A stretch of 64,000 nt of DNA, taken from Naegleria gruberi. Its lineage: Eukaryota. Both the position numbers and the translations under genes were made by a program. Where the stretch lies: assembly GCA_000004985.1 (NCBI GenBank), contig GG738848.1. The stretch is one strand, 5' to 3'. The number at the start of each line of letters is the position of its first letter. The stretch's first letter is position 1. Below, in pieces: positions 1 through 53,604 of this stretch. The notes under the pieces are model-generated. The model worked only from the letters and a program-made list of their open reading frames with translations, did not search any database and was not told the DNA's origin.

Positions 1-2344
1 CTACACCCAGTACTTTAGTAATTATGAAGCAGCATTGAATAGTATTAGGGAGGCAGATAAAAATCCAAAAAACAAACGATTTTCTGAATGGTTGAAAAAG
101 ACTGATGATCGTGCTAAGGAACAGGGTCAACAAACTTTTAAACAATTATTGATTCAACCTGTTCAACGTATTCCAGTATGTTTTTTATTATATTCATTTC
201 AGTTTTTAATAACTAACTCATACTCATTTAAATATATATTTAATTGTAAATCATATTCATTTAAATATTTGCATACATGTAAATGATTTGATTTGCCACA
301 TTGTAACTTGTTAATAATTCTATCAAATGCAACTCTGTGAAATGTTGATATATCTATTCGAATGTATTAAATACAGCGTTACAATTTACTTTTATCGGAA
401 GTTTTGAAGAATACACCAAAAACTCATGTCGATTATGAAAATTTGAGAAGTGCATCAGATAAGATGAAAGAAGTTGCAGATCACTTGAATAGACAAATTA
501 CAGAAATTGAAAATAGAAACAAACTAATCAAATTGAAAGAAATTTTCGTTTTGAATAACACAGGCAAAGGTGTCATGACTAATATCGTTGAACCTCATCG
601 TAAATATGTATTTGAAGGAGAGTTACATGTTTTGAGTGAAACTTCATCTATTAACAAGCAGAAGCATTACTTTTTCTTATTTAGTGATATTATGGTTTGT
701 TGTAAGGAAGTTCCAGAAGAATTAAAGAGGAAATTAATTGAAGAAAAAAAGGCAGCTCAACAAAGTCAAGCTAATTCGAAAAAACTTGGAGGTCTCAAAA
801 TATTTTCACGTAAATCGGATGCTGGTAACTCAGATACTGACCATAATCAATTTGGTGCATTTGATGATGATGAAAACGAAATTCCAGATCATTTCTATAC
901 TATAACATTTACAATCAAATTTACTGATAAAATTGGAACGGGTAATACACCTGTCAGTTCACCAATGATGGCTGCCTCCACTCCAACAAGTCCTTCAATG
1001 GAAAGCTCAACCAACGTTGAAGAAATATGGGTCCGTGACTTTTCATTCATGGAAGGACGAAATTTCCAATTCCCAAATATTTTCCAATTGATAACAGGAA
1101 CTGAAACTTATACATTTGAATCAACTGATGCCAAGTCACGTGAGAAATGGGTTAACCATTTGAATAATACTTTGGATGAATTGAAAAAGAAGAAGAAAGA
1201 CACAACCAAAGATCGTGCAAAGGCAAAAGGTTTTCCAGTTGTTATGGTCAACTCGGCAGCTCTTGTTATTCAAGCTCTTGCTCGTGGTAAATTAACAAGA
1301 GGCAAGAAGGGAGACGTTGAAAATAGATTCAAACCTAGAAAGAAGACCACTAAGTTGAACACTAATCCATTAGGTGCTACTTCTCCATCTTCACCTACAG
1401 CTGATTCTATACCTACTGGACCTGTCACAATTGACCATACTGATGTTAATGTGACTGCTCCACCAGAAAAATCACCTAGACCAGTTGAAGAACCAATTGC
1501 AAAAGTTGAAGAACCAGTCACCAAACCAATTACACCACGTGTCATTGATGAAAATCCATCTCAAGAACCAACTAGTGTTATTGATGCTGCCACTATTCCA
1601 CCACAAACAAATGTCGTAGAAGAACCACAAGAAACATCAAAACCAGTAGAAGAACCAAAGCAAGTTGAAGTTGAAAAGCCAGTGGAAGAACCAATTGTGG
1701 AGAAACCAACAGAACCAGTTACAGAGCCATACGAGGACAATACTTCTACCACAACAACAGAAGAGGAACCAAAACCTGTTGAACCTGAAGTTGTGGATTC
1801 AGCAACAGTCGAAGAACCAAAGGTCAAGCAACCTGAAATTGAGGAACCAAAGCAACAAGTTGATCCAGGTATTACAACAACAATTGAAGAACCTGAAGAT
1901 GAAGAACCTGCCACACAGACAACTCCTGAATCAACCAATAATGATGCCATTAAGAAATCTCCTCGTGAATCCATCTCTGACGGTCTGAGATCACCTCTCT
2001 CCAGTCCAAGACTTTACAGAAAGGACAGTAATGAGGAATTCAAATCACCAACCAAAGAAGAAGATGAAGAAGTATACTTTGATGAGGAAGGAAATGTCTT
2101 ACCACCTTGGAAGGTTGAACTCATGAAGAAATTCAAAAAGTCAGGCAAATTCAATGCCATTCTTGCTCAACAAAATGATAACAAGAAGGTTGAAAAGAAG
2201 ATTGACATGCCAAATAAGAAGTTGCAATTAAATGCAATTCGTTCCATGTTTGAGGAGAAGGATAAACTTGCCAAAGAAGAAATGCACACTTTACGAAAGG
2301 CAAAGGAAAGTCCACAAAATACTTCATCTTCCTCTTTGAAATAA
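1..2344 (+). CDS. RhoGEF (DH-PH) protein, 5' end outside window. Exons 1..175 (partial) and 377..2344, intron 176..376 (GTATGT..AG). C-terminal PVEEP/PEVK-like low-complexity tail.
   Basis: Splicing exon 1 to exon 2 yields LLIQPVQRIP|RYNLLLSEVLKNT, the conserved end of a DH domain. It is followed by a PH-like segment (RKYVFEGELHVL...HYFFLFSDIMVCC). Frame continuity was checked across the junction. Confidence 0.7.
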
Positions 2345-2449: not shown

Positions 2450-5400
2450 TTATTGTCTCTTGTATTTGATGATATATTCAGGATAGCACTGATATCTATC
2501 ATAGACAATCAATTCTCTATATGAATTACTTGTAGTATTTGATTGGCCAATCACACTATCAAAGACTCTTCTATTCTTTCCAACAATTTCTGGAGGTCTT
2601 CTTTGATTGGTCATTCCTTGGGGTGTGAAATAGACTTGTCTTCCCAAAACAACTCTACACAGGAATATAGTATATTCCTTATTAAGGTCTGGAGTGCAAT
2701 ATTGGTCACTCTTTGAACAATACTCAGCAAAATAAACTCCAGCTCCAAATAAACCACCCAAACTTGCAACTCTTTCATCAAATCCATGTTCTGAAATGGT
2801 TGAAACAAATTCAGGTTTTGTTCCGTGCCATAAGTACTTTTCATTCATTCCACTATTCAATCCAACTGTTTTCATCCATTCGTAGGATTTGCTTGTTTTT
2901 GGCAATAGTTCTGTTTGAACTTGGATTGTCTTGATAGGATCTTGATAAGATGTCAAATGATTCATTCTTGATTTGTATGAAGTGAAAAGTGTTGCATTTT
3001 CAATTCTTGAAACACTTGAAACAATTAATTTGGAATAATTCATTTTCACTTGTTGATCTCTACCAGTTCCAAGTGTTGCAGAATTACATGAAACATTGAC
3101 AATATCTTGAATGGTATTTTTCAAATATTTTGTAACATCCACAATGTAAAATCTTTTAGAATAGGATGTGAATGTATTTCTCTTCCAATAACTTGGCAAG
3201 ACAATATTCAATTGTCTAGATTTGGATTCTTCCAATTCCTTTTCCATGTCTTGTAATTTCTTTTCCTTACTTTTCAATCTGCTAATTTGATTTGTAATTT
3301 CTTCTCTTTCCTTAACACTTTGATTGGTGAATTCCTTTGTTTTCTGTTCAAGTTTCTTGATTTCTTGTGTGAGATTGGATTTATCTTGTTTGAGATTGAA
3401 TTTAACTTGATTCAATTGTTTTTCATATTCCTTCAATTGTTTTGATTGATTTGAAATGGATTTGACTTGTTCTTGAACTTTGATTTCATCCAAGAGAGTA
3501 TCCTTCAAAAAGAATTCACAAACAAGAGCATCTGATGCAAATGGTCTGTCATTTGGATCATTAGTCATACATTGTTGAACTAGAGTATTCAATGATGAGT
3601 AAGTATTCAATTCTTGAGCAGTCATACAATTCTTGATGGTTTTTCCAAATGCAAACATATCTGATTTGAATGTTGCTGATTGACCATTCATTAATTCAGG
3701 TGATAGATAGTCATATGTTCCAGAAACAGAAGTTCTAGTGTACAAATTCATTGTTCTACTTTGAACATCCAAACTAACATCAAAATCTCCCAAAATAATT
3801 GGATATAGACCATTGTTACATTCTCCAACAAATATATTCTCAGGTTTGATATCACAATGAATGACACCTCTGGAATGAATATGTTGAATGGCAATTAATA
3901 CTTGTCTCCATGTTCTTTCCCAAAAAAGTACTTCTAATTTGGTGGATTTTCTTTGTTTTTCAAGAAATTCCTTCAAATTACCATTCGAATAATATGGCAT
4001 TACAATATAAACATTGTTGGTGGAATGGCTATTATCATTAGACATGTAAAATCCTTCAATTTCAATAATATTGTTATGTTTCAACTTTTTTGTAATCTTG
4101 AGTTCTTTTTGTAAACTTTCCAATTTTTTGTTATCCTTGATTGAATATTGTTTAATGATATGTTTCTTATCGTTAATATCAGTTCCAATAAACAAGTGAT
4201 GATTTCCATTCCAATCTTGAATTGGCTTAATTTCTTTGAATAAATCGGCTGACATTTCTTCAATATTCATTGTGGATGCAATACTTGATGACAGGATTGA
4301 CTCAACATTGAATCCAATAGTTTTCAATTGGAGGAACTTCAACTTGATTTCATTTGTCTGTTCAATACATTCCTTGAGTACTTTCTTTTTTTCTTGTAAG
4401 GTTGTTTCCTTTTCTTTAATTTCATCCTCAATTTGCATGGATTCAGTCTTGTTTGTAACATGTACTAATTCATCTCTCAATCCATCAATGTCAAGTTTAA
4501 TAATGGTCAATTCTCTTGTTACTCTTGCTTTCTTTCTTTGTAAAGCAGAATATTGTTCTGTCAATTGCTTGTAATCATTCATAATGTTTACAATATTTTG
4601 CAATTGTTCATGTTGTTCAATAATGAATGGAATGGTTTCTTGAATGAGCTTGTTTCCATTATTAAATTGATTTTGATAATCACAATAAATTTGATAAATT
4701 CCAATTTGAACTAGTTCAGGAAGCAAATTTTTAGTATTAGAAATTGCTTTTTGTAATTCCAATTCCTCCTTTGAAAGCATTTCCATTGCAATCTCTAAAT
4801 TATTTGCAATTCCATTCAAATTAACACTTGTGGCATTATTAATGGATGATGCAATATTTTGTAATTGAGTTGAAATATTTTGTAAAACATTTTTGGATTT
4901 TCCTTCATAATTTGAATCTGTAGTTGAACCATTTAAACTTTTAAGTGTTTTTTGAATTTTTTCAATTGTTAATTCCTTATTTAGGTTATCATTAGCATTG
5001 TAATATTGTAATTGATCTTGATTCAAGTAATTTTGAACAAATTCATCAAATATTTGTAATTTTTCATCTAATGCTTGAATATAGCTATTCAATTGAATTA
5101 AATAATTTTCTGAATTAATTCTTTCTACTATATTTGTAATATTTAACATGTCATTATTAATTAAAGCCACATGTTCAACATTTTCAATATCACACTTATT
5201 ATTCATCAATCTATCATTAATAGTTGAACAACATTCGGATAAAACTCCATTAATTTTCGAATAAACTTGTTGTAGCTCAGTATCAAATGATAATTGATCT
5301 GAAAGTGGAATTACCGAATTCAATTGAGAAGTTACTTGTTTTCTATATTGAGAAACTTTCTCATTCAATGAACACAACTCTGTGAAAACTTGAAATACTG

Positions 5401-6571
5401 AAAGGAAAGTTTGTTTCTTTTCCTTTTCAATTCTTTCCTGTTCAAGTCTTTCGTTTTCAATTCTTTCTTGTTCGAATCTTATTTGATCAGCACGTTCCTT
5501 TTCAAGTCTCTTCTTTTCCAACATTTCTTTTGTAATTCTTTCCTTTTCAATTCTTTCCTTTTCGAGTTTGTCGACTTCTTGTTTAATTATGGAAATTGAT
5601 TTTCCATTAATTTTTAAATTGTTATCAACAACGATATTTGGGGAAGCAAGTAGCAATTTGACAATTTCTAAATTTCCTTTTTGGCAAGCAATAAACAAAG
5701 GAGTGAACTATATATGGTAATATAACTAAATTAATAAATTAAATTTACTTACATTCTAATAAAAATTAGTAAAAAATTTAAATAATAATTGATTGCTTAC
5801 ATTCTATAATGATACATTGAGTATTGAAATATTTCAAATAAATTTTTACTTACATACTAAAATTAATTAATTAAAAAAAATTAATAAAAAATTTTTACTT
5901 ACTCGCTATTTAAATTTTAAATAAAATTAAAAAATAATTAAATACTCACATCCTAATAAACAATATTAAAAAATCAATTAAATTTTACTTACAAACTAAA
6001 TAATATTAACATGTAAATAATAAAATATTATTACTTACAAACTATTATTTTAAAAATTATAAATTTTAAAAATTAAAGCACTTACTCTCTAATAATTATT
6101 TAATACATTTAAAATTAAGTATATTAAGTAATACCTACTTCCTATATAAATATTAAATAAAAAATCGACCATGTAAAATACTTACATACTAAAAATGGAA
6201 TTAAATAAAAAAATAAAATTTTTAACTTACAGTCTATTAAAAATTAAATAAACATTTAAATATAAAACACTCACACCCTACCATCATTAATATATCCAAT
6301 ACATTCACTTCATAACTACTTACACACTAAAAATGTCAACTGTCAACACAATAAATCAAATACTCACACCCTTGTTCACATTAATTTCTGCATAATTCAA
6401 CAATAATTTAACAATTTCCACGCGTCCATTTTCACAAGCATTATACAACATTGTCTTTCCTATTTTTCCATTAGAATATTCATTGATATCTGCTTTTTTA
6501 AACCATTGTTTAAATTCCTTGACATTTCCTGTGGAGGCAGCATCAAGTGCGTTCTCAAAGTTTTTGGACAT
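2450..6571 (-). CDS. Ankyrin-repeat / coiled-coil / protein-kinase-like / tankyrase-like PARP catalytic domain protein. Exons 6571..6368 and 5707..2450, about 1153 aa.
   Basis: Exon 1 reads MSKNF...VEIVKLLLNYAEINVNKG. Exon 2 reads FTPLFIACQKGNLEIVKLLL..., and the junction completes a 33-aa ankyrin repeat. The kinase region has HCDIKPEN, DFD and SPE motifs but a degenerate glycine loop. The C-terminus is WHGTKPEF..GFDERVASLGGLFGAGVYFAEYCSKSDQYC...YRELIVYD...YPEYIIKYK, a PARP fold closest to tankyrase with the catalytic Glu retained. Confidence 0.75.
5708..6367 (-). repeat. Intronic tandem array of 13 units, each about 47 nt (43–54). On the minus strand every unit is AT-rich spacer, then TAG, three nucleotides, then GTAAGT or GTGAGT. 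This is a chain of mini-introns separated by 3-nt microexon-like triplets.
   Basis: Read directly on the plus strand as ACTTAC/ACTCAC + NNN + CTA at 5747, 5798, 5847, 5896, 5944, 5988, 6033, 6081, 6135, 6180, 6227, 6270 and 6319. The true exon-1 donor at 6363 has the same form. All 13 have exactly 3 nt between AG and GT. Confidence 0.8.
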
Positions 6572-8525: not shown

Positions 8526-9755
8526 TTAAAAGAGACCAAATCTTGTCAATTTTTTGGCCTTCTTTACACTATCAATACCTTTGTCAATATGGTTGTTGGC
8601 TGTTTCTACATTTTCTAGCATTGAATCCAATGTTTCTTGGTTCTCAATAATTATACTGTGCATGTCTTGATACATTCCGTGGAGTTCTGTGTAATCTGTT
8701 TCGAGTCTCTTTAAATCTTCGTGGGTTTCTTTGGCTATGGCTGTTTCTACATCTATAGTGTTCTTGTCCCATTGACTGAGGACAAACTTTTCCTTTTGTT
8801 GTTGTACTTGAACTTGTTGTTGTTGACCTCCATCAACTTCAAAGTTGTCATTCAAATCTGAGCTTGTTGATGGTTTCTTCTTTTCATAAATATCTTTAGT
8901 ATTCTCGCTAATAATCTTCTTATATGAGGCATTATTCAAAATTTTGGTAAATTTAGGTTTCTCTTCATTGTATTGTCTCAAAATTTTATCTGTTATAGAA
9001 TTCTTGGTAACTGTCTTGAAATAGGAATCCAACATTTTTTGGAGATCTTTCAGACGCTTGGTATGTTTGAGAATATCGTTTGTCATACGTTGTTGTGAAC
9101 TTGCTTTCTTTCCAAAATTATCCAATAATTTTTGTGTATTCATTGTGACTTTGATAAATTCCTCAATGGCAACTACAGCATCCTCATAAGAGTTGACAGA
9201 GTCTAATTCTTTGTTATCGTCATCATCCTCTTCATCAACATTTGGTGATTCATTGGAAACATATTCCAAATCATTATCTAATGAAGATTCATTAACAGCC
9301 AATCCATTAATTGTCAACTTCTTTTTTGTTTTAGCAGTCTTTGAACCAATCGATTTCAATCCTTGTTTAAATGTTTTCTTTTGAGTAATAGAGTTGAGAA
9401 TATCCTCAAGTTCTACTTGAGACATTCCTGTTTCCTTCTTTGCAATCACCATAACCATTGGTAATAAATAACTTTCTAATTTAGTCCAATCGGAGAGAAT
9501 TTCTGACCAATCATCAGACTCTGCAACTATAATTTTCTTCCCACTAAATGTTGACCTTTGGTCTAGGAAGGCTTCAGTCTTTATCAATATAACTCTATAA
9601 TTCAATCCACTTGGTTTTGAAAACAATCCTCTCTTAGCCTGTTGCAGAATCATAAAATCATTTTCATAACGAACCGTTTTTCCAAGAGCTGAAACAGCCT
9701 CTACCGTTGAAAAACTACTATTTGTTGAAATTTGTGGTGGGCAATATATGACCAT
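8526..9755 (-). CDS. Syntaxin-like t-SNARE protein. The C-terminal coiled-coil SNARE motif is followed by a hydrophobic tail.
   Basis: C-terminus is ...IDVETAIAKETHEDLKRLETDYTELHGMYQDMHSIIIENQETLDSMLENVETANNHIDKGIDSVKKAKKL, a heptad pattern with a central Q. ATG lies in an A-rich context. Confidence 0.55.
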   Translation of the reverse strand: MVIYCPPQISTNSSFSTVEAVSALGKTVRYENDFMILQQAKRGLFSKPSGLNYRVILIKTEAFLDQRSTFSGKKIIVAESDDWSEILSDWTKLESYLLPMVMVIAKKETGMSQVELEDILNSITQKKTFKQGLKSIGSKTAKTKKKLTINGLAVNESSLDNDLEYVSNESPNVDEEDDDDNKELDSVNSYEDAVVAIEEFIKVTMNTQKLLDNFGKKASSQQRMTNDILKHTKRLKDLQKMLDSYFKTVTKNSITDKILRQYNEEKPKFTKILNNASYKKIISENTKDIYEKKKPSTSSDLNDNFEVDGGQQQQVQVQQQKEKFVLSQWDKNTIDVETAIAKETHEDLKRLETDYTELHGMYQDMHSIIIENQETLDSMLENVETANNHIDKGIDSVKKAKKLTRFGLF

Positions 9756-10507: not shown

Positions 10508-12382
10508 TTATTTCAAACCATCTAAACACAATTTTAAATCATTTTTAGAACAGGGCTTTAAGAGAATTTTGTCGAAAATTTCTCTACTTTGTTCTTCCTC
10601 TGCCGTCAGAACATTTCCTGTGATTAAAATTAGTTTGAAACTATTTCCGTATAATCTCCTTAATTCTTTTCCTGCTTCCAATCCGTTCATATTGGGCATA
10701 TTCTATTTACGCATAGTATTATATATTAATATCAATTAAATATTGGTAATGAAACAAACCATATCTGTAAATACAATTTTGTGATTTTTGTAATTGTCTA
10801 AAAGCTCGCGTCCATCTGAAACTGAATCTGCAGCATATCCCAAGGTACTGAGCATTTTTAAAAGGATTTTTCTATTAACTGGATTATCTTCTGCGAGTAT
10901 GATTTCATTTTCTGATTGTTTGGAACTGGAAGCAGCTGATGAAAGTCTTAAATGTTCCTCATGAATTGTCAATTGTGACTCTACAATCCGTTCCACTGTT
11001 ACTGATTCATTATCAACAAAGTCAGCAAGTTCAAATGGTATTGTAACAGCAAAGTCACTTCCAACTCCAACTGTTGAGTCAACATTAATGGTTCCTTTCA
11101 TATGATTTAATAATATGGAAACAGTTGTTAATCCTAATCCCGAACTTGGTACCTTTGATTCATTATTATTATCCAGTTGGACAAATGGCTCAAATATTTT
11201 GGAAATCAATTCTTTAGGAATTCCCTTTCCCTTGTCTGATATTTTAAATTCAATTTTGGCTGATTTTTCATTCTTTTCCAAGATAGTAGCAGTTAGAGTT
11301 ACATTTGATTTAGGCTTGGATGCCTTGATAGAGTTAGTTAATAAATTAGAGAGTATTTGATAAATGTAAGATCTGTTGCTTTTCACTATCGTATGTGAGA
11401 GTGAATCACAAATAAAATTTAGGTTGATTTCGAATTGCTTTGCATATCCTGAAATAATATTTTGAAGATCAAAGAGACATTTTTCCAGTTCAAAACTTTC
11501 CTTCTTAATTTCATGATCAATTTTTTCTTGGTTAGTTTCATTCTCAATTCTAATTATTTGCAAAATATCCTCAATTAATAGAAGTAAAACATTGTTCGAG
11601 GAAAGGGCCATATCCACTAATTCTGTTTGTGATGAATTTAATTTAGTTTCCTTCAGTAATTCTAAGCATCCTCTGCTTGACATTATAGGACATCTAAATT
11701 CATGTGAGACATGACTCAGAAATGTATTCCTGACCGTTAAAGCTTCCTCCAATTTGGCCCTAGTTTGCTCCAACTTTTCAACCTTCATTGATAGGTATCC
11801 AGTTACGTTGACCAAACTATAAGTTAAAATCCAAAACGAGGCAGCCAATCCAAATGATTCACACAATGAAGTAATCATGTCTACCGTTAATCCGTTAGCA
11901 ATATAGTCCACTATCCCAGTATAAATTCCACATGAAACAAACAGTGTAGTAAAATATAGAGTTGGTATCAGTCCCAGAACTGTTGATTGTAAATACCACT
12001 TATTCTCAAATAGTAACCATATTATCACAGCAGGAATGAACAAAATCTTATTCGATTTGAACAAGAAATACCGTATAGTTGCCGAAACAACCCTTCCCAG
12101 CAGAATATGCCAATCCATTGTCTTGGTTGTATCCTCATTATTTAAAATATTGGCAAGACTCGATCTATTAGAAACAAACAAAAACAAGGCTATTGAAATA
12201 TTCAACAAATTCCCTATCCAATCCAAAGAAACCAATCCATATACTATTGCCAATACATTACAAATCATTAAACTCAAAACAACTCCTTTAGGTGATGAAA
12301 TCATCCTTAACAATTTCAATTCCCATTCACTTCCTTTCCTAGCTGCCACAAAATCATATACTTTAAATTCTTTCCTATTCAT
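10508..12382 (-). CDS. Hybrid histidine kinase (multi-pass N-terminal membrane region, HisKA, HATPase_c, receiver domain). Exons 12382..10760 and 10702..10508, with a 57-nt intron that uses a GTTTGT donor.
   Basis: H-box is SHEFRCP. The ATPase region contains NLLTNSIKAS...GLGLTTV. The receiver domain starts ILAEDNPVNRKILLKMLSTLGYAADSVSDG. Splicing rebuilds ...IVFTDM|NMPNMNGLEAG, which matches the DxxMPxMxG consensus. Confidence 0.8.
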
Positions 12383-19540: not shown

Positions 19541-19613
19541 GGGGTCTTGGCGCAGTCGGTAGCGCGTAGGTCTCATAATCCTAAGGTCGTGAGTTCGATC
19601 CTCACAGACCCCA
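19541..19613 (+). tRNA. tRNA-Met (elongator, CAU), inverted copy of the gene at 16226..16298.
   Basis: Same sequence as the 16226 gene. About 45 bp of 5' flank is also conserved in inverted orientation. Confidence 0.85.
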
Positions 19614-19937
19614 TCTTTTTTGCATCCTTTAATTTCCAACAATGAGTGGACAATAAGTCCATAATTACACAACTTTCAGGATAATCCTTAAAACATCAAC
19701 TTCAATCAGTGAAATATGTTAATAACCCTTAGGTCAACCTTGATGTATTTCTAAAACTGTCACTTCACTTTAGCATAGTACTTTTTAATGTATTTTGCGT
19801 TAAAATGAGGCGCAAGTGCAGATAGGAACACTATCTCAATCCCTCTTTCAACTCTTCTGCAAAATGAAATCTTGGGTTTAGTGATTTTCCAAAAACAAAT
19901 AGACGGATATGTCAGAAATTTGTTATTAATAATGTTA

Positions 19938-20009
19938 GGGACCATGGTCTAGTGGTATGATTTTTGCTTTGGGTGCGAGAGGCCGTGGGTTCGATTCCCA
20001 CTGGTCCCC
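19938..20009 (+). tRNA. tRNA-Pro (UGG).
   Basis: GGGACCA..TGGTCCC acceptor and anticodon loop CTTTGGGT. Matches the canonical eukaryotic tRNA-Pro. Confidence 0.85.
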
Positions 20010-20102
20010 TTATCTTTTGTTTTAAAAGAAATCATTAAGGTACAGTTTTGCAAACCTCAGTAATATTTTTAGAACATTTCAATTCCAAAATTGTAAAATG
20101 TC

Positions 20103-20174
20103 TAGCAAATCTAGGTTTCGATCCTAGGACCTATGGGTTATGAGCCCATCGCGCTTCCGCTGCGCCAATTTGCT
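20103..20174 (-). tRNA. Initiator tRNA-Met (CAU).
   Basis: AGCAAAT..ATTTGCT acceptor, GGCGCAGCGGAAGCGC D-arm, GGGCTCATAACCC anticodon arm, and the initiator-type T-loop GATCGAAACC. Confidence 0.85.
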
Positions 20175-31398: not shown

Positions 31399-32517
31399 TT
31401 AATGAATAAAATCAAGAATAATGTCATCTAATCGTCTCATTTGTAAAGCTCCATGTAAATTATGTTTAAAATCATTATTTGGAATTACAAAAAGAGGTAA
31501 ATCAAACCTGTGAGTAATAAAACACTTTCTAGGTGAATTAGCTCCTATGGCTAAACAATTCAGTAATTCCTTCATATCAGAATCATGGGATGTATTCACA
31601 ATATGATATTCATATGTTCTATTTGGATAGCTGTTGTCTTGGTTATTTATCATTACTTTCAATGTCTCTGTAATGAGAGAATTGATGATTAGTGCACAGT
31701 CTTTCTTTAATCTATTCAATTCTTTACGAATATTTGGATCTGTATTTCCTTGATATTTAACACCCAATTTTATCCTTTCCTGGAAAACATCCGGGTGAGT
31801 AAATATCAAAATTATTCTATAGCAAGTAAATTTAGAAAGTCTTTTACATTCATTGAAATAGGTATTCAAATATTGAAGATTATCATAATCAGATAACGAA
31901 AATGAGACTGCAACCACATCAGCCCAAGTGTCACAAGAAAAACAATTTGCAAAAAGCTCAAAACTCAATTGATTGGTTTTGTAAGGATAATTGCTAGTTT
32001 TTGTGGAATAAGCACATGTAAGATATCTTTGATTTGTGAACACAGGCTCAAAAAAACAAGTTCTCTTCACATTAAATTGACTTCCTCTTTCCAGATATGA
32101 ACACAATGTTGGTAATACCAAATATGGATCCAATTTAAATCGATTTTCAAAATATTCCTCTCTAAAATTTGGTTGACTCCACAATTCCACTAATAATTCC
32201 GCCAAACTCATTCTCTCCATTTGATGTTCATGAAAATAATGAGGCAAATGTTTGCACAAATGATCACAAATAAATAATAATTCTTCACGTAACAATTTTT
32301 CATCCGATTGTTTGTATTTGTTGTAGGTTTCGTTGGTAGTAGTGCAAAATTCTGATAGATCTCCTCGATGAAGAGACATTATTTGATCAGCCAAGCCTTG
32401 AAAAATCACAACAGAAGGTCCTCCTGCAATTAGAAAATATTGGTGGTGGTATTCATTTGTGTTGGAGTGATGTCCTGAATTGATATGCTTGGTTGGAAGA
32501 GAATTGTTTGCACCCAT
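31399..32517 (-). CDS. Divergent G-protein alpha-subunit-like protein with an N-myristoylation motif and degenerate GTP-binding motifs.
   Basis: Start is MGANNS from tacaaaaaaATGG. DVVAVSFSLSDYDNLQYL matches Gα (A)IIFCVALSDYDQVL, and RIILIFTHPDVFQERI matches SIILFLNKKDLFEEKI. The P-loop is reduced to LIAGGPSVV. Confidence 0.55.
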   Translation of the reverse strand: MGANNSLPTKHINSGHHSNTNEYHHQYFLIAGGPSVVIFQGLADQIMSLHRGDLSEFCTTTNETYNKYKQSDEKLLREELLFICDHLCKHLPHYFHEHQMERMSLAELLVELWSQPNFREEYFENRFKLDPYLVLPTLCSYLERGSQFNVKRTCFFEPVFTNQRYLTCAYSTKTSNYPYKTNQLSFELFANCFSCDTWADVVAVSFSLSDYDNLQYLNTYFNECKRLSKFTCYRIILIFTHPDVFQERIKLGVKYQGNTDPNIRKELNRLKKDCALIINSLITETLKVMINNQDNSYPNRTYEYHIVNTSHDSDMKELLNCLAIGANSPRKCFITHRFDLPLFVIPNNDFKHNLHGALQMRRLDDIILDFIH

Positions 32518-33480
32518 TTTTTTGTAATAGATCAGCAATTACAACAGCACTACACATCATACCACCAAACAGCAATGCAAAGGTACTCACTGACAGTGAA
32601 ATAGCGGTCAAAATAATTAACAACACAAATTACAAAGGTCAATTTAAGCAAATCAAAGATGAAATTACCAACCTCATCAGCACTAAAAAACTTCAAGCAT
32701 CCATCGAATGGACAAAAGCTCATACAGGAATAACAGATGGAAATAACTACGCTGATAAGAAAGCCAAACAAGCCTCACGAATAGGACATCGAATTGCACC
32801 CCAACATCTACTAACTCAAGGGCAATTAATTATCACCAATTCGAAAAAAGTTTGGAAAAGTAGAATCAAAGGAGTACTTAGGGAAAAGCTCTACGATCAA
32901 GGAACATCCGAACTCATCAACAGAACAAATCTCAATTACCTCAAAGAACATACCACCCCAACTCACAAATACTCAATCTGGAGGCTCATGATAAATGGAC
33001 ACTTAAGAAGCCTCATAGTAGACAACCCACAATGCCCAACATGTAACAAAAACCTTGACACAGAACACCTCTTCATAGAATGCCCAGAAATGAATTCAGC
33101 AAGAAACTGGATGATTGAAGAAATCAAAAAAAATCAATCTCGAACCAGTACTAAGCACAGAGAGGACAGAAATATTAACACCAAACTCATTCCAACTGAA
33201 TATCTTTGGTATTCTGACAAAACCTATTCAAGGTATTATCAAAGAACAATGGCCCAAGATACAAGGAGGCCTCTCACTTTTTGGAGGAAGAGTACAAAAA
33301 CAATACAACAAAATCTTAAAAATTCAATAAGACGTTCCAAATGGACGAACCCGTCGGGTTCATTCGATTAATAAACGTTTAAATTTTTTTGTAATAGAAA
33401 CTGGAATTTTATGTACTAATAAAATTAAAAAATAAATAGTTAAATATTAAACAAACGCGTCACCACCAAATCATTTGGTG
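32500..33480 (+). mobile_element. 5'-truncated non-LTR (LINE) retrotransposon fragment carrying the ORF2 RNase H tail plus a Cys-rich C-terminal motif and a 3' UTR. It sits tRNA-proximal, as TRE3-like elements do.
   Basis: VLTDSEIAVKIINN...ASIEWTKAHTGITDGNNYADKKAKQAS is the RNase H DxxE...H...D tail. CPTCNKNLDTEHLFIECPEMNSARNWM is the zinc motif. The element ends about 40 bp from the 3' end of the tRNA-Arg on the opposite strand. Confidence 0.7.
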
Positions 33481-48887: not shown

Positions 48888-50057
48888 CTATTGATAGGTA
48901 ATCAAATATTCAGGATAGGCTTGCTTATTATCATAGACAATAATTTCCTGTCCTCCCCATCCAGTAACACTATCAAATCCCTGCGGAGCAATCTTAATCG
49001 TCTGCATCATATTCATATTAGCATCATATGAATGACCAACAAGTACTCTCACAATGAACATTCTTCCATTATTACTATTACCAGCATATCCGAGAGAGTA
49101 GGAAGCATTGGGACTAAAGTAAATTCCATTTCCAAATTTCCCACTATTACTCACTCTTGCATCGAAACCTTCCTTGGCAATTAAATCAGCAAATTGTTGT
49201 TGAGTTCCGTGGAAGAGTTGTTTCTCATTGTGGTTGGCTTTCATGTTCTGCTTTTGAAGACTGTACCAATTCCATCGAATGTAATTTTCAATTCGTTCAA
49301 TTTTGAGAATGGTTTTACCTGTGGAGGTTGAGGAAAAGAGCTGAGAACAATGTTGAAACTCTTTGGAGGAGGTGGAAAGTGTTACTATTCGAAAGTGTGG
49401 TTTCATGAGAGGGTTTTTGGAGAGTTTGGGAGGATTTTCCCATTCCTTTGGCCATGAAGAGATGCAATTCACTTGTGTGTTGCTGGTTGAATTGGTTGCC
49501 TTGCTTTCATGTATAAATGAATAGCAATGTGAAATATCTCCAGATAGATACTTTTGACAGGAAGTAGCATCTTGGCATGTATGGAAATAGTGAAGGCAAT
49601 GCTCTTTCTGTTGGAGTTTAGTACACTTTGAATCGTATTTGCATGGATGGACGAATCTGGATCTGTGAACAGAATCAGTAATCATGGAACAGTTTGCTCC
49701 CTTCTTACATGGATGATAATACTTTTCACCATGATCAACATGATCCCTATAGTTTGTTTTGGTACATTTATCCCAATGTTTACAAGGCACCTTGTCTTTT
49801 AATTCATTAACTTTGGTTGAAGTTGATGATTTCGTTGTTTTGCTGCAGCTTGGTGATGAGGAATGGCTGGTTGTTGGTGTTGTACTTGTGGATTGGATTG
49901 TGGATTGTTGTGGTTTGACGTAATTGACAGGAAGAAATTGTGGATTAGCTCCTGTTGTCATGTATCCAACAATTTGTGGCACCGTTCCTTGAGGGATATT
50001 TTGTGGAGGTTGGGATGAAACACTTGGTGTGGGCAATGTTGGATTGTTTTGCTTCAT
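48888..50057 (-). CDS. PARP catalytic-domain protein with three PBZ-type (C2H2 poly-ADP-ribose-binding) zinc fingers and a Pro/Gln/Thr-rich N-terminus.
   Basis: Fingers: CKHWDKCTKTNYRDHVDHGEKYYH, CKKGANCSMITDSVHRSRFVH and CKYDSKCTKLQQKEHCLHYFH. Catalytic region: LFHGTQQQF...GFDARVSNSGKFGNGIYFSP...GQEIIVYDNKQAYPEYLITYQ. Confidence 0.75.
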   Translation of the reverse strand: MKQNNPTLPTPSVSSQPPQNIPQGTVPQIVGYMTTGANPQFLPVNYVKPQQSTIQSTSTTPTTSHSSSPSCSKTTKSSTSTKVNELKDKVPCKHWDKCTKTNYRDHVDHGEKYYHPCKKGANCSMITDSVHRSRFVHPCKYDSKCTKLQQKEHCLHYFHTCQDATSCQKYLSGDISHCYSFIHESKATNSTSNTQVNCISSWPKEWENPPKLSKNPLMKPHFRIVTLSTSSKEFQHCSQLFSSTSTGKTILKIERIENYIRWNWYSLQKQNMKANHNEKQLFHGTQQQFADLIAKEGFDARVSNSGKFGNGIYFSPNASYSLGYAGNSNNGRMFIVRVLVGHSYDANMNMMQTIKIAPQGFDSVTGWGGQEIIVYDNKQAYPEYLITYQ

Positions 50058-50143: not shown

Positions 50144-51310
50144 ATGCATCAGCCAAACAATCCGAATGGCACAAATAATAATAATTGGCAACAGTTTCCG
50201 CAACAGCAAATCTATTTGCATCAGCAACCACAAGGTCAAGTATTTCCGCACCAACAATTACCAATGTATTGTCAACCGTACCAAATTATTCAAATTCCTA
50301 ATGAAATGATTCAACCATCAACACAACAAGTTTCATCTCAACAAACAATGCTACCAAACGTGATGCTCAGTTCCACTTCAACTTGTCCACAAGATTTTCA
50401 CAATCAAGTACCAGAAAGAGAGGATTTTTGCACTGATTGGAGATTATGTTCTGAAACAAAAGATCAGAAACACAGATGCACCAAAAGACATTTATGTACC
50501 ATCAAGAATTGCTCCAAAACTAGTGATAAGGTTCATGTTGGCAGATTCTTGCATTATTGTAAATATGGTGAAAAGTGTCGTCACATAGATGATGATAATC
50601 ATAATCATAACTTTATTCATCCATGCAAGTATAAGGGAGATTGTAAAAAGCTTGGAGACATTATGCACAGAATTTTCTTTACCCATCCAACAATAGCTGA
50701 CAATGGCTTGTATCCAAGATCTTGGGGAAAGGTGTTGGACGATCATTGTAAATGTGTTAAGCTTTCACATAGCTCTTCAGAATTCAAAGAGGTAGAGAAA
50801 ACATTTATTCAAAGAATTAATCACAGCCATCCAACTGCTCAAGTAATCGACATTGAAAGAGTGGAAAATGCCAAGTTATGGAGAGCTTTCTCAATTAAGA
50901 AATCAGAAACCATTCACAAGAATCAAAATATCAAAGCTGAAAATCAAGTGAAAACACTCTACCATGGAGCTGAAGAAACAGCAGTCGATGCCATCACCAA
51001 AACAGGATTTGATTATAGACGATGCCAAGTTGGACATTATGGACATGGAAATTATTTTGCAGTCAATGCTAGTTATAGTCATGGTTATGCCAAGCCATCA
51101 ACTTCTGATGGTAGTAGAAGGATAATTGTTTGTAAGGTAGTTGTTGGAGAATCTCTCAGAGTAGCACAGAAGGATAATACTCTGAGAAGACCTCAGGATA
51201 AGACAACAGGTAAAATGTATGATTCAGTACAGGGAGGACCAACAGGAACTGAATATGTAGTATTCGATAACGAATCTCCATATCCTGGATATATTGTAAT
51301 TTACAAATAA
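50144..51310 (+). CDS. Paralogous PBZ zinc-finger PARP protein, divergently transcribed from the gene at 48888..50057.
   Basis: Fingers: CTKRHLCTIKNCSKTSDKVHVGRFLH, CKYGEKCRHIDDDNHNHNFIH and CKYKGDCKKLGDIMHRIFFTH. Catalytic region: LYHGAEETAV...GHYGHGNYFAVNASYSHGYA...GTEYVVFDNESPYPGYIVIYK. The two start codons are 86 bp apart. Confidence 0.75.
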   Translation: MHQPNNPNGTNNNNWQQFPQQQIYLHQQPQGQVFPHQQLPMYCQPYQIIQIPNEMIQPSTQQVSSQQTMLPNVMLSSTSTCPQDFHNQVPEREDFCTDWRLCSETKDQKHRCTKRHLCTIKNCSKTSDKVHVGRFLHYCKYGEKCRHIDDDNHNHNFIHPCKYKGDCKKLGDIMHRIFFTHPTIADNGLYPRSWGKVLDDHCKCVKLSHSSSEFKEVEKTFIQRINHSHPTAQVIDIERVENAKLWRAFSIKKSETIHKNQNIKAENQVKTLYHGAEETAVDAITKTGFDYRRCQVGHYGHGNYFAVNASYSHGYAKPSTSDGSRRIIVCKVVVGESLRVAQKDNTLRRPQDKTTGKMYDSVQGGPTGTEYVVFDNESPYPGYIVIYK

Positions 51311-53365: not shown

Positions 53366-53437
53366 AGCAAATTGGCGCAGCGGAAGCGCGATGGGCTCAT
53401 AACCCATAGGTCCTAGGATCGAAACCTAGATTTGCTA
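53366..53437 (+). tRNA. Initiator tRNA-Met (CAU), copy B.
   Basis: Identical to the 20103..20174 gene. Confidence 0.85.
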
Positions 53438-53532
53438 TTCATTTTACAATTTTGGAATTGAAATGTTCTAAAAATATTACTAAGGTTTGTAAAACATGCA
53501 CCCTTAATGTTTACATCTAAAACTAAAGATAA

Positions 53533-53604
53533 GGGGACCAGTGGGAATCGAACCCACGGCCTCTCGCACCCAAAGCGAGAATCATACCACTAGACCATGG
53601 TCCC
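53533..53604 (-). tRNA. tRNA-Pro (UGG), copy B.
   Basis: Canonical TCTCGCTTTGGGTGCGAGA anticodon arm. Copy A has two C-to-T changes that convert pairs to G•U in that stem. Confidence 0.85.

Follow-up and report, generated by a model that had tools for sequence, protein, structure and literature searches.

Background

Several ADP-ribosyltransferases (ARTs) of Naegleria have been described. Sowa et al. (2022) reported NfTNKSL, a tankyrase-like ART of N. fowleri with a single domain and a putative zinc motif (PMC9688111), and Perina et al. (2014) noted ankyrin repeats combined with PARP in N. gruberi (PMC4245714); neither mentions a kinase. Citarelli et al. (2010) list N. gruberi PARPs as short orphans only (PMC2964712). 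Kinase-like domains with an unusual nucleotide-binding site are known from other proteins. The RNase L pseudokinase has DFD in place of DFG, with both aspartates on Mg2+, and shows tight Mg-ATP binding but no catalysis; the Toxoplasma kinase WNG1, in which the Gly-loop is missing and DFE stands in place of DFG, is nevertheless catalytically active (PMC6442604). Here we describe a gene at positions 2450-6571, minus strand, of a 64-kb stretch of Naegleria gruberi DNA (the window; G+C content 25-37%). Its product joins ankyrin repeats, a protein-kinase-like domain and a PARP catalytic domain, and its coding sequence is interrupted by a tandem array of intron-sized units separated by triplets.

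Domain architecture and gene model

The window protein is an ankyrin-kinase-PARP fusion encoded by one gene. This combination was proposed in a sequence-only reading of the stretch, and profile searches on the 1,153-amino-acid (aa) product bear it out, all three domains scoring above the curated Pfam cut-offs: Ank_2 (residues 11-92, E=3.8e-16, with further matches to Ank, Ank_3, Ank_4 and Ank_5), Pkinase (PF00069, residues 586-767, E=8.9e-33, 114.2 bits against a cut-off of 31.7) and PARP (PF00644, residues 1004-1151, E=7.9e-22, 78.2 bits against a cut-off of 26.7). The coordinates of all features are collected in Table 1. The last ankyrin repeat, the helices, the kinase-like domain, the linker and the PARP domain lie in one open reading frame (ORF), and the fusion is therefore independent of splicing. 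A frame of 1,085 codons at about 30% G+C cannot have arisen by chance.

Exon 1 starts at an ATG preceded by an A-rich leader and is closed by the 5' splice site AAG GGT|GTGAGT, and the last exon is preceded by the 3' splice site TATATAG|TTC at 5708/5707. The ORF list gives the frame of the last exon as a single ORF, 2450..5698. The N-terminus is homologous to that of P0060, an annotated N. gruberi paralogue (41-43% identity), which makes the start codon and exon 1 credible. Direct joining of the two exons yields the 1,153 aa stated in the sequence-only reading. Its single-intron model is too simple: because 13 internal splice-site pairs lie within the 660-nucleotide (nt) "intron", the mature product may have 1,153–1,166 aa, depending on the predicted retention of the triplets.

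The window gene has no self match in the searched protein collections, including an exact look-up, and is apparently absent from the annotated N. gruberi proteome, maybe because standard gene predictors cannot model such arrays. The models of its N. gruberi paralogues look fragmentary: P0060 ends after the kinase (ankyrin and kinase only), P0064 consists of PARP only, and P0217 skips the kinase. Both observations would suit an artefact of the gene model, that is, separate genes or a decaying pseudogene. We consider such an artefact very improbable, since the uninterrupted 1,085-codon ORF in AT-rich DNA covers all C-terminal domains, every catalytic motif is intact, and the same fused order recurs in three Naegleria species and in transcriptome proteins of other protists.

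The ankyrin matches are confined to residues 11-100 and correspond to about 2.5-3 repeats; the mini-intron array splits this region in the loop directly before TPLF. It is followed by a helical region made up of a 100-residue helix rich in E, K and R, then a helical bundle and then three long helices that lead into the kinase. In the AlphaFold2 (AF2) model of the N-terminal half (mean predicted local distance difference test score, pLDDT, 79) the middle region is all-helical. It has no Pfam family, and a fold search gave no significant match (best E=0.05); it is kept in the paralogues P0060 and P0217 and in the homologue P0070. The kinase had been read as flanked by coiled coils, and the AF2 models, which were built from alignments of the family, place helices on both sides, upstream at residues 106-205 and 399-531 and downstream at residues 806-898. 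The downstream helices (249-306 and 309-341 in query numbering) form a K/E/Q-rich, heptad-like linker to the PARP domain, which is found in most family members.

A family of kinase-PARP fusions

A search with the whole protein was swamped by ankyrin and coiled-coil matches and retrieved no relative, whereas queries with the middle region and with the kinase-PARP half were successful. When the kinase-to-PARP half was used as query, an exhaustive HMMER search returned 149 representatives (at 50% identity) with E<=1e-30. The match runs from kinase to PARP in one stretch in 14 of the 150 best representatives. Family members include the N. fowleri protein XP_044563143, with the order SNase-helices-kinase-PARP and 51% identity, the further Naegleria proteins XP_044563812 (N. 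fowleri) and XP_044552390 (N. lovaniensis), and transcriptome proteins (GILK01..., an MMETSP transcript), one of which has N-terminal WD40 repeats. Metagenome proteins of environmental eukaryotes also match in one stretch, and the protein P0073 of the cryptophyte Hanusia phi matches in two.

A word-indexed search added at least ten further proteins with both PF00069 and PF00644, including P0077 of Hanusia phi, as well as the N. gruberi paralogues P0217, P0060, P0064, P0068 and P0071. P0068 combines a ricin-type lectin with PARP, and some related N. gruberi PARPs have no kinase. Neither the N. lovaniensis paralogue locus (L001) nor that of N. fowleri (L002) is syntenic with the window gene, and ankyrin repeats are absent from both. 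Judging from these comparisons, the members have kinase-coiled coil-PARP as their core and differ in the N-terminal module, which may be ankyrin, WD40 or SNase or may be absent. No description of kinase-PARP fusions was found in the searched literature. Within the PARP family, the window protein represents a new variant in architecture, with relatives in sequence databases and no description in the searched papers.

PARP domain and its relation to tankyrases

The PARP domain keeps the His and Glu of the H-Y-E triad, as had been noted in the sequence-only reading; that list was incomplete, as the Tyr (Y1060) is kept too. In alignments, H1029, Y1060 and E1133 fall on the H-Y-E of tankyrase, and all three are invariant in the alignment of 12 family members. 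The tankyrase-like block predicted by the same reading is present in the product as GFDER...GGLFGAGVYFAE, corresponding to the consensus GFDER...GG(L/M)FGAG(I/V)YFAE.

In a single-sequence search of PDB with the PARP domain, tankyrase-1 (62.5 bits, 3.6e-16) and PARP12 (60.8 bits, 1.2e-15) score about equally. A profile of the 12 family members, compared with solved structures, ranks tankyrase-2 first (122 bits, 2.7e-34), followed by tankyrase-1 (116 bits), PARP12 (105), PARP15 (103), PARP14 (85) and PARP1 (62). This order of scores indicates that the catalytic domain is tankyrase-like. The AF2 model has an ART fold, with mean pLDDT per 10-residue block mostly 74-94 and dips to 57-62, and its best Foldseek match is tankyrase-1 (8x5j_B, template modelling score 0.76).

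Like tankyrase-1/2 (PARP5a/b), the window protein has ankyrin repeats N-terminal to a PARP domain without the helical regulatory domain. It could hence be regarded as a Naegleria protein orthologous to tankyrase (PARP clade 4), all the more so as its best solved relatives are tankyrase-2 and tankyrase-1 and a tankyrase-like ART domain is reported in N. fowleri (PMC9688111). We hold orthology to be highly improbable, and at the level of architecture it is already refuted. There is no Pfam SAM domain at E<=0.1 in the product, the interval being occupied by helices and the kinase. The zinc-binding insertion of tankyrases (GIGGGTGCP.HKDRSCYICHRQ) faces gaps in the alignments of the window PARP domain. 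In place of five ankyrin repeat clusters (ARCs) with about 20 or more repeats, about three repeats are present. Helices totalling about 550 aa and a kinase domain separate the ankyrin repeats from PARP; PARP12 and PARP15 score only 17-19 bits below tankyrase-2; and tankyrases are regarded as restricted to metazoans and the lineages nearest to them (PMC2964712, PMC9688111). Because the three defining features (SAM, zinc insertion and ARCs) are missing, the window protein is, by sequence comparison, not a tankyrase; the likeness to tankyrases claimed earlier applies to its catalytic domain only. NfTNKSL shows that tankyrase-like domains occur in the genus. It is described with a putative zinc motif and a single domain, whereas the window protein lacks the motif and has ankyrin repeats, helices and a kinase in addition (PMC9688111).

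The second-best relatives are the clade 3 PARPs (PARP12, PARP15, PARP14 and PARP7/TiPARP), which share the N-terminal pattern LPxxW...RIEN.xLw..Y with the window protein; NCBI gives N. gruberi paralogues the name 'TCCD-inducible-PARP-like'. Clade 3 PARPs are mostly H-Y-(I/L/Y) mono-ADP-ribosyltransferases. In contrast to them, the window protein keeps the Glu and has no WWE, CCCH or macro domains in Pfam.

Kinase-like domain

The motifs HCDIKPEN and SPE and the DFD in place of DFG, which had been picked out in the sequence-only reading, are all present in the translated product, and the glycine-rich loop is degenerate as stated there. The Pkinase profile match begins only at profile position 32; QDWNGN is aligned with GEGSFG of NEK1, and both GxGxxG and the DFG glycine are missing. 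Only the Gly-loop and the DFG glycine (D711) deviate among the key residues of the kinase. The AF2 model from kinase to PARP (mean pLDDT 80) has a normal kinase fold. The best PDB sequence match of the domain is NEK1 (8e-19), with ULK1, PKR and NEK7 little behind, and its Foldseek neighbours are CaMKII, PKR, AAK1, ULK1, PERK and NEK1, with E-values down to 3e-16 (CaMKII, PKR, ULK1). The Lys, Glu, HxD, Asn, DFD and (A/S)PE are kept in most family members, including those from distant protists. The Gly-loop position reads (G/S)-x-(R/N)-H in members from very different organisms. As far as the alignments tell, both the unusual Gly-loop and the DFD are characteristic of the family.

The family-wide deviation of these two motifs is compatible with a pseudokinase scaffold, in which nucleotide binding, dimerisation or both would gate the PARP domain in the way the RNase L pseudokinase gates its RNase. 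RNase L has the same succession of ankyrin repeats, a kinase-like domain and a C-terminal effector, and shares the DFD with its Mg2+-bound aspartates and high affinity for ATP. The helices on either side of the kinase suggest an oligomerisation switch. In addition, the relatives P0069 (HGN) and P0071 (HGN and GFD) have no catalytic Asp. On the other hand, the window protein and most distant members retain the HxD Asp together with the Asn, Lys and Glu, which would be needless for a pure scaffold, and WNG1 is active in spite of a missing Gly-loop and DFE. The pseudokinase scaffold suggested in the sequence-only reading therefore stands as one possibility only, with the degenerate Gly-loop and the DFD in its favour and the intact K587, E603, D687, N692 and D709 against it; we take it to be possible, though unlikely.

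The comparison with RNase L is one of architecture and is made by analogy. RNase L is not among the best 60 sequence matches listed for the kinase domain; its effector is a KEN RNase instead of a PARP, and the window protein retains the catalytic Asp and Asn. Activation driven by dimerisation is plausible as a feature common to both. WNG1/ROP35 resemble the window protein in an absent or degenerate Gly-loop and in the acidic residue that replaces the DFG glycine (PMC6442604). In WNG1 the role of the lost loop is taken over by basic residues in its vicinity (PMC6442604), and the family studied here has the conserved (G/S)-x-(R/N)-H there. The WNG kinases differ in their rebuilt N-lobe, the AF2 model having the usual N-lobe strands, and they belong to another lineage (coccidia) and have no PARP fusion. 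ATP binding by the window kinase domain is likely from its residues. As to catalysis, conservation of the catalytic residues inclines us towards activity.

Mini-intron array

The most unusual feature of 2450-6571 is the tandem array of mini-introns and putative single-codon exons between exon 1 and the last exon. It consists of 14 intron-sized units (40-50 nt, GTRAGT...TAG) with 13 triplets between them. The 13 internal TAG-NNN-GTRAGT sites are spaced by 43-53 nt, and exactly 3 nt separate AG from GT in all of them. The motif YAGNNNGTRAGY occurs 12 times in the array and twice in the other ~127 kb (both strands of the window); the two outside sites are chance matches, one inside a tRNA-Val gene and one antisense to coding sequence. 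The triple-unit pattern has four matches, compared with none in 100 shuffles. In size the units match plausible ordinary introns of the window (42, 43, 58 and 64 nt).

The splice sites of the units are almost invariant, with G1, T2, G5 and T-3/A-2/G-1 in 14/14 and A4 and T6 in 13/14, whereas the interiors are at background level (pairwise identity 0.64 vs 0.62 for shuffles). This points to selection on every splice site. Tandem Repeats Finder (TRF) detects a period of 46 (a 43-nt intron and 3 nt) across two adjacent TTT units, and AAT is also repeated in neighbours; at least part of the array therefore arose through duplication of [intron + codon]. That introns can be gained by tandem duplication is accepted (PMC4974935, PMC2891723).

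No Rfam match was found on the array, and its units are too short for intron-hosted snoRNAs. In the ratchet points of Drosophila a 3' splice site likewise stands beside a 5' splice site; recursive splicing of this type was rejected, as 3 nt and not zero lie between AG and GT. Single 3-nt exons are spliced in animals, e.g. in homothorax (PMC7392893). Unlike the known 3-nt microexons of animals and plants, 13 of them would stand in a row here, with a full mini-intron on each side. No description of tandem 3-nt exon arrays in Naegleria or other protists was found in the searched literature.

The triplets could be lost from the mRNA if the whole 660 nt were removed, in one step or stepwise. The product would then have 1,153 aa, and the internal sites would be leftovers of duplication or decoys in splicing or regulation. 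The direct join reads G-F-TPLF, in agreement with the ankyrin consensus G-x-TPLH, and scores slightly better than the version with all triplets (Pfam Ank_2, 64.8 vs 59.3 bits); in the comparison with the paralogue P0060 the two are about equal (99.8 vs 98.2 bits). The TRF period over the two TTT units is in line with duplication. Relative to the paralogue loop, however, the direct join is 4 residues short and the full version 9 residues longer, and the 28 of 28 intact splice sites in units sized like ordinary N. gruberi introns, with interiors at background, argue for selection on each site.

Similar arrays in other genes

Further evidence on the triplets comes from arrays in other genes. P0070, an environmental homologue with 44-46% identity and the same end of the ankyrin region, helices and kinase, is encoded on contig L123, where an array abuts the TPLYAAC exon. 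It occupies the same loop of the same ankyrin repeat as in the window gene, and its first four mini-introns are 93-98% identical. The residues encoded by the triplets differ between the window gene and L123, which again fits full removal. At L123 2758-2792 (plus strand) the P0070 ORF stops at TGA, and in-frame codons of coiled-coil type follow (IQKELDQLRN); CA|GTGAAT at the end of P0070 is a possible 5' splice site, and the gene probably continues past the contig.

A scan of metagenomes for the triple-unit pattern yielded L003 and L077 as true analogues among the matches listed. Most of the listed matches are (AAGT)n microsatellites or ordinary minisatellites with identical 'triplets' and were discarded. 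The L003 array lies in an unrelated AT-rich ankyrin gene, with triplets AAA, TGG, AAT and AGT (K, W, N, S) in the same ankyrin loop, just before TPLH. With the triplets included, L003 has a gapless 33-residue repeat, the Ank_5 score rises to 93.2 bits from 75.4 without them, and Ank_4 aligns residues 37-86 to profile positions 1-50 of 50; the L003 triplets must therefore be coding. In L077, a non-ankyrin gene, the triplets again differ from each other (GAA, TTG, TCA, TAT, CGT). No arrays, and one match to the motif, were found in the paralogue loci L001 and L002.

In the four arrays taken together, triplet G+C is 29%, compared with 13% expected from intron interiors (tail 8e-5), and none of the 26 triplets is a stop codon (P ~0.07). 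This exon-like composition, together with the need for triplets in the canonical repeat of L003, speaks against removal of the whole 660 nt, which we regard as a doubtful alternative. Retention of at least some of the 13 triplets in the mature mRNA is predicted with good probability.

In L123 and L077 the array introns are near-identical (88-95% identity), though only within one array; in the window array, the similarity of unit interiors does not exceed that of shuffles. The pairing of near-identical introns and unrelated triplets in L123 and L077 fits neither simple duplication nor random insertion, and is predicted neither by plain duplication nor by dispersed insertion of introners.

Table 1. 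Features of the window gene (positions in the window) and of comparable arrays (positions in their own contigs).
Feature	Position	Strand	Details
Whole gene, Naegleria gruberi	2450..6571	-	ATG 6571 to stop 2450
Exon 1	6368..6571	-	68 codons; N-terminal cap and ankyrin repeats 1-2; ends ...EINVNKG
Mini-intron array	5708..6367	-	660 nt between exon 1 and last exon
Last exon	2450..5707	-	1,085 codons and TAA 2452-2450; last ankyrin repeat (FTPLFIACQKGN...) to PARP end
Ankyrin-repeat region	5612..6541	-	residues 11-100 of the 1,153-aa product; Pfam
Helical region	4235..5599	-	residues ~105-559; AF2 model
Ser/Thr protein-kinase-like domain	3506..4234	-	residues 560-802
Kinase beta3 Lys K587 (HIIKQY)	4153-4151	-	NEK1 alignment
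Kinase alphaC Glu E603	4105-4103	-	NEK1 alignment
Kinase catalytic Asp D687	3853-3851	-	HCD of HCDIKPEN
Kinase catalytic-loop Asn N692	3838-3836	-	
Kinase DFD, D709/D711	3787-3779	-	GDFDVS
Kinase SPE motif, E739		-	LSPEL
Helical (coiled-coil-type) linker	3218..3496	-	residues 806-898, between kinase and PARP
PARP/ARTD catalytic domain	2453..3199	-	residues 905-1153; starts LPSYW
PARP triad His H1029	2827-2825	-	YLWHGT
PARP triad Tyr Y1060	2734-2732	-	GVYFAE
PARP triad Glu E1133	2515-2513	-	YRELIVY
Array triplet 1, TGT	6326-6324	-	
Array triplet 2, GGT	6277-6275	-	
Array triplet 3, ACT	6233-6231	-	
Array triplet 4, TAT	6188-6186	-	
Array triplet 5, GAA	6141-6139	-	
Array triplet 6, AGA	6088-6086	-	
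Array triplet 7, TTT	6041-6039	-	
Array triplet 8, TTT	5995-5993	-	
Array triplet 9, GAT	5952-5950	-	
Array triplet 10, CGA	5905-5903	-	
Array triplet 11, TAT	5856-5854	-	
Array triplet 12, AAT	5803-5801	-	
Array triplet 13, AAT	5755-5753	-	
Array in L123 (ena:ERZ27315067:k141_1457473)	1-222	+	5 mini-introns; triplets TGG, CAA, CGA, GTT; contig begins inside array
Array in L003 (Ga0207864_1037532)	1111-1316	+	unrelated AT-rich ankyrin gene; 5 introns of 35-44 nt, four 3-nt exons
Array in L077 (JACKZZ010005374.1)	~1720-2000	-	non-ankyrin gene; five 53-54-nt introns, 95% identical

Genomic neighbourhood

Genes next to the window gene, unlike the latter, are annotated in N. gruberi. Exact matches to proteins of N. 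gruberi NEG-M were obtained for five window ORFs without introns, among them EFC49404 (a syntaxin, 8526-9755), EFC49410 and EFC49420 (a PARP, see below). A Pfam survey of the whole window revealed no ADP-ribosylhydrolase or obviously linked gene beside the locus. In the N. fowleri locus L002 (2431-4378, plus strand), an ADP-ribosylglycohydrolase gene (PF03747) ends about 100 nt upstream of the start of the kinase-PARP gene P0212 on the same strand. The two could be a writer/eraser gene pair; the window has no such neighbour.

Two further PARP genes are encoded divergently in the window at 48888-50057 (minus strand, EFC49420) and 50144-51310 (plus strand). In both, a Cys/His-rich N-terminus with CCCH-like spacing is followed by PARP at the C-terminus (Pfam E=6e-20 and 3e-23), and the exact sequence of the second is not in the protein collection. 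An ORF at 10736-12382 (minus strand) encodes a hybrid histidine kinase with HisKA, HATPase_c and the first part of a receiver domain; it ends inside the receiver, and an intron probably follows. An RNase H ORF at 32493-33371 (plus strand, E=4e-9) overlaps by 46 nt with the start of a 379-aa ORF without a Pfam match at 31399-32538 (minus strand). Eleven tRNA genes, including four tRNA-Met(CAT) and two tRNA-Pro(TGG), lie between 16226 and 58125 of the 64 kb, several of them in close pairs (19541-20174, 53366-53604).

Proposed mechanism and implications

The explanation that we find best, and moderately probable as a whole, is that of one N. gruberi gene with 14 mini-introns and 13 single-codon exons, encoding a multidomain ADP-ribosyltransferase that would work as a signalling enzyme. 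Its N-terminal module would bind a partner, and the long helices would oligomerise the protein. The kinase domain could bind Mg-ATP via K587, E603, D687, N692 and D709/D711 and then either phosphorylate the protein itself or recruited proteins, or serve as a nucleotide-dependent switch. The PARP domain, using NAD+, would ADP-ribosylate the protein itself or recruited targets. Partner binding, oligomerisation or both might thus control phosphorylation and ADP-ribosylation. In the array, at least some triplets are probably retained in the mRNA. The oligomerisation, the catalytic activities and the substrates are what we infer.

Several points weigh against this explanation. The activity, expression and splicing of the gene are predictions from its sequence, and a gene without a counterpart in protein collections and apparently unannotated could be poorly expressed. 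With a degenerate Gly-loop and Asp instead of the DFG glycine, the protein must handle ATP in an atypical way, and the loss of the catalytic Asp in P0069 and P0071 means that the kinase-like domain can persist without catalysis. The H-Y-E triad is necessary but not sufficient for poly-ADP-ribosylation (PARP3, PARP4). For the array, the scores of the direct join and the divergence of triplet-encoded residues between homologues count in the same direction.

The 13 triplets may also be read as frame-neutral cassette exons in the target-binding loop of an ankyrin repeat, a splicing-based generator of diversity with up to 2^13 variants. We consider this improbable; if true, a variable N-terminal binder would be joined to a kinase and PARP effector in a sensor-like protist protein. 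If the triplets are constitutive, tandem [mini-intron + codon] arrays would be a gene structure not previously described and would add a distinct way of gaining introns in heteroloboseans and other protists. Spliced as they look, the arrays would represent extreme microexon splicing and offer a direct view of local intron multiplication.

Studies of the cross-talk of phosphorylation with ADP-ribosylation normally deal with separate enzymes; here both modules are joined by a coiled coil. Conservation of this arrangement in distant protists implies that the coupling is functional. The family would provide a compact system in which to study the control of an ADP-ribosyltransferase by a kinase domain, be it active or switch-like. 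Its tankyrase-like catalytic domains appear to have been joined to ankyrin repeats independently of the metazoan tankyrases, and at least two of its members are encoded by N. fowleri, a lethal human pathogen.

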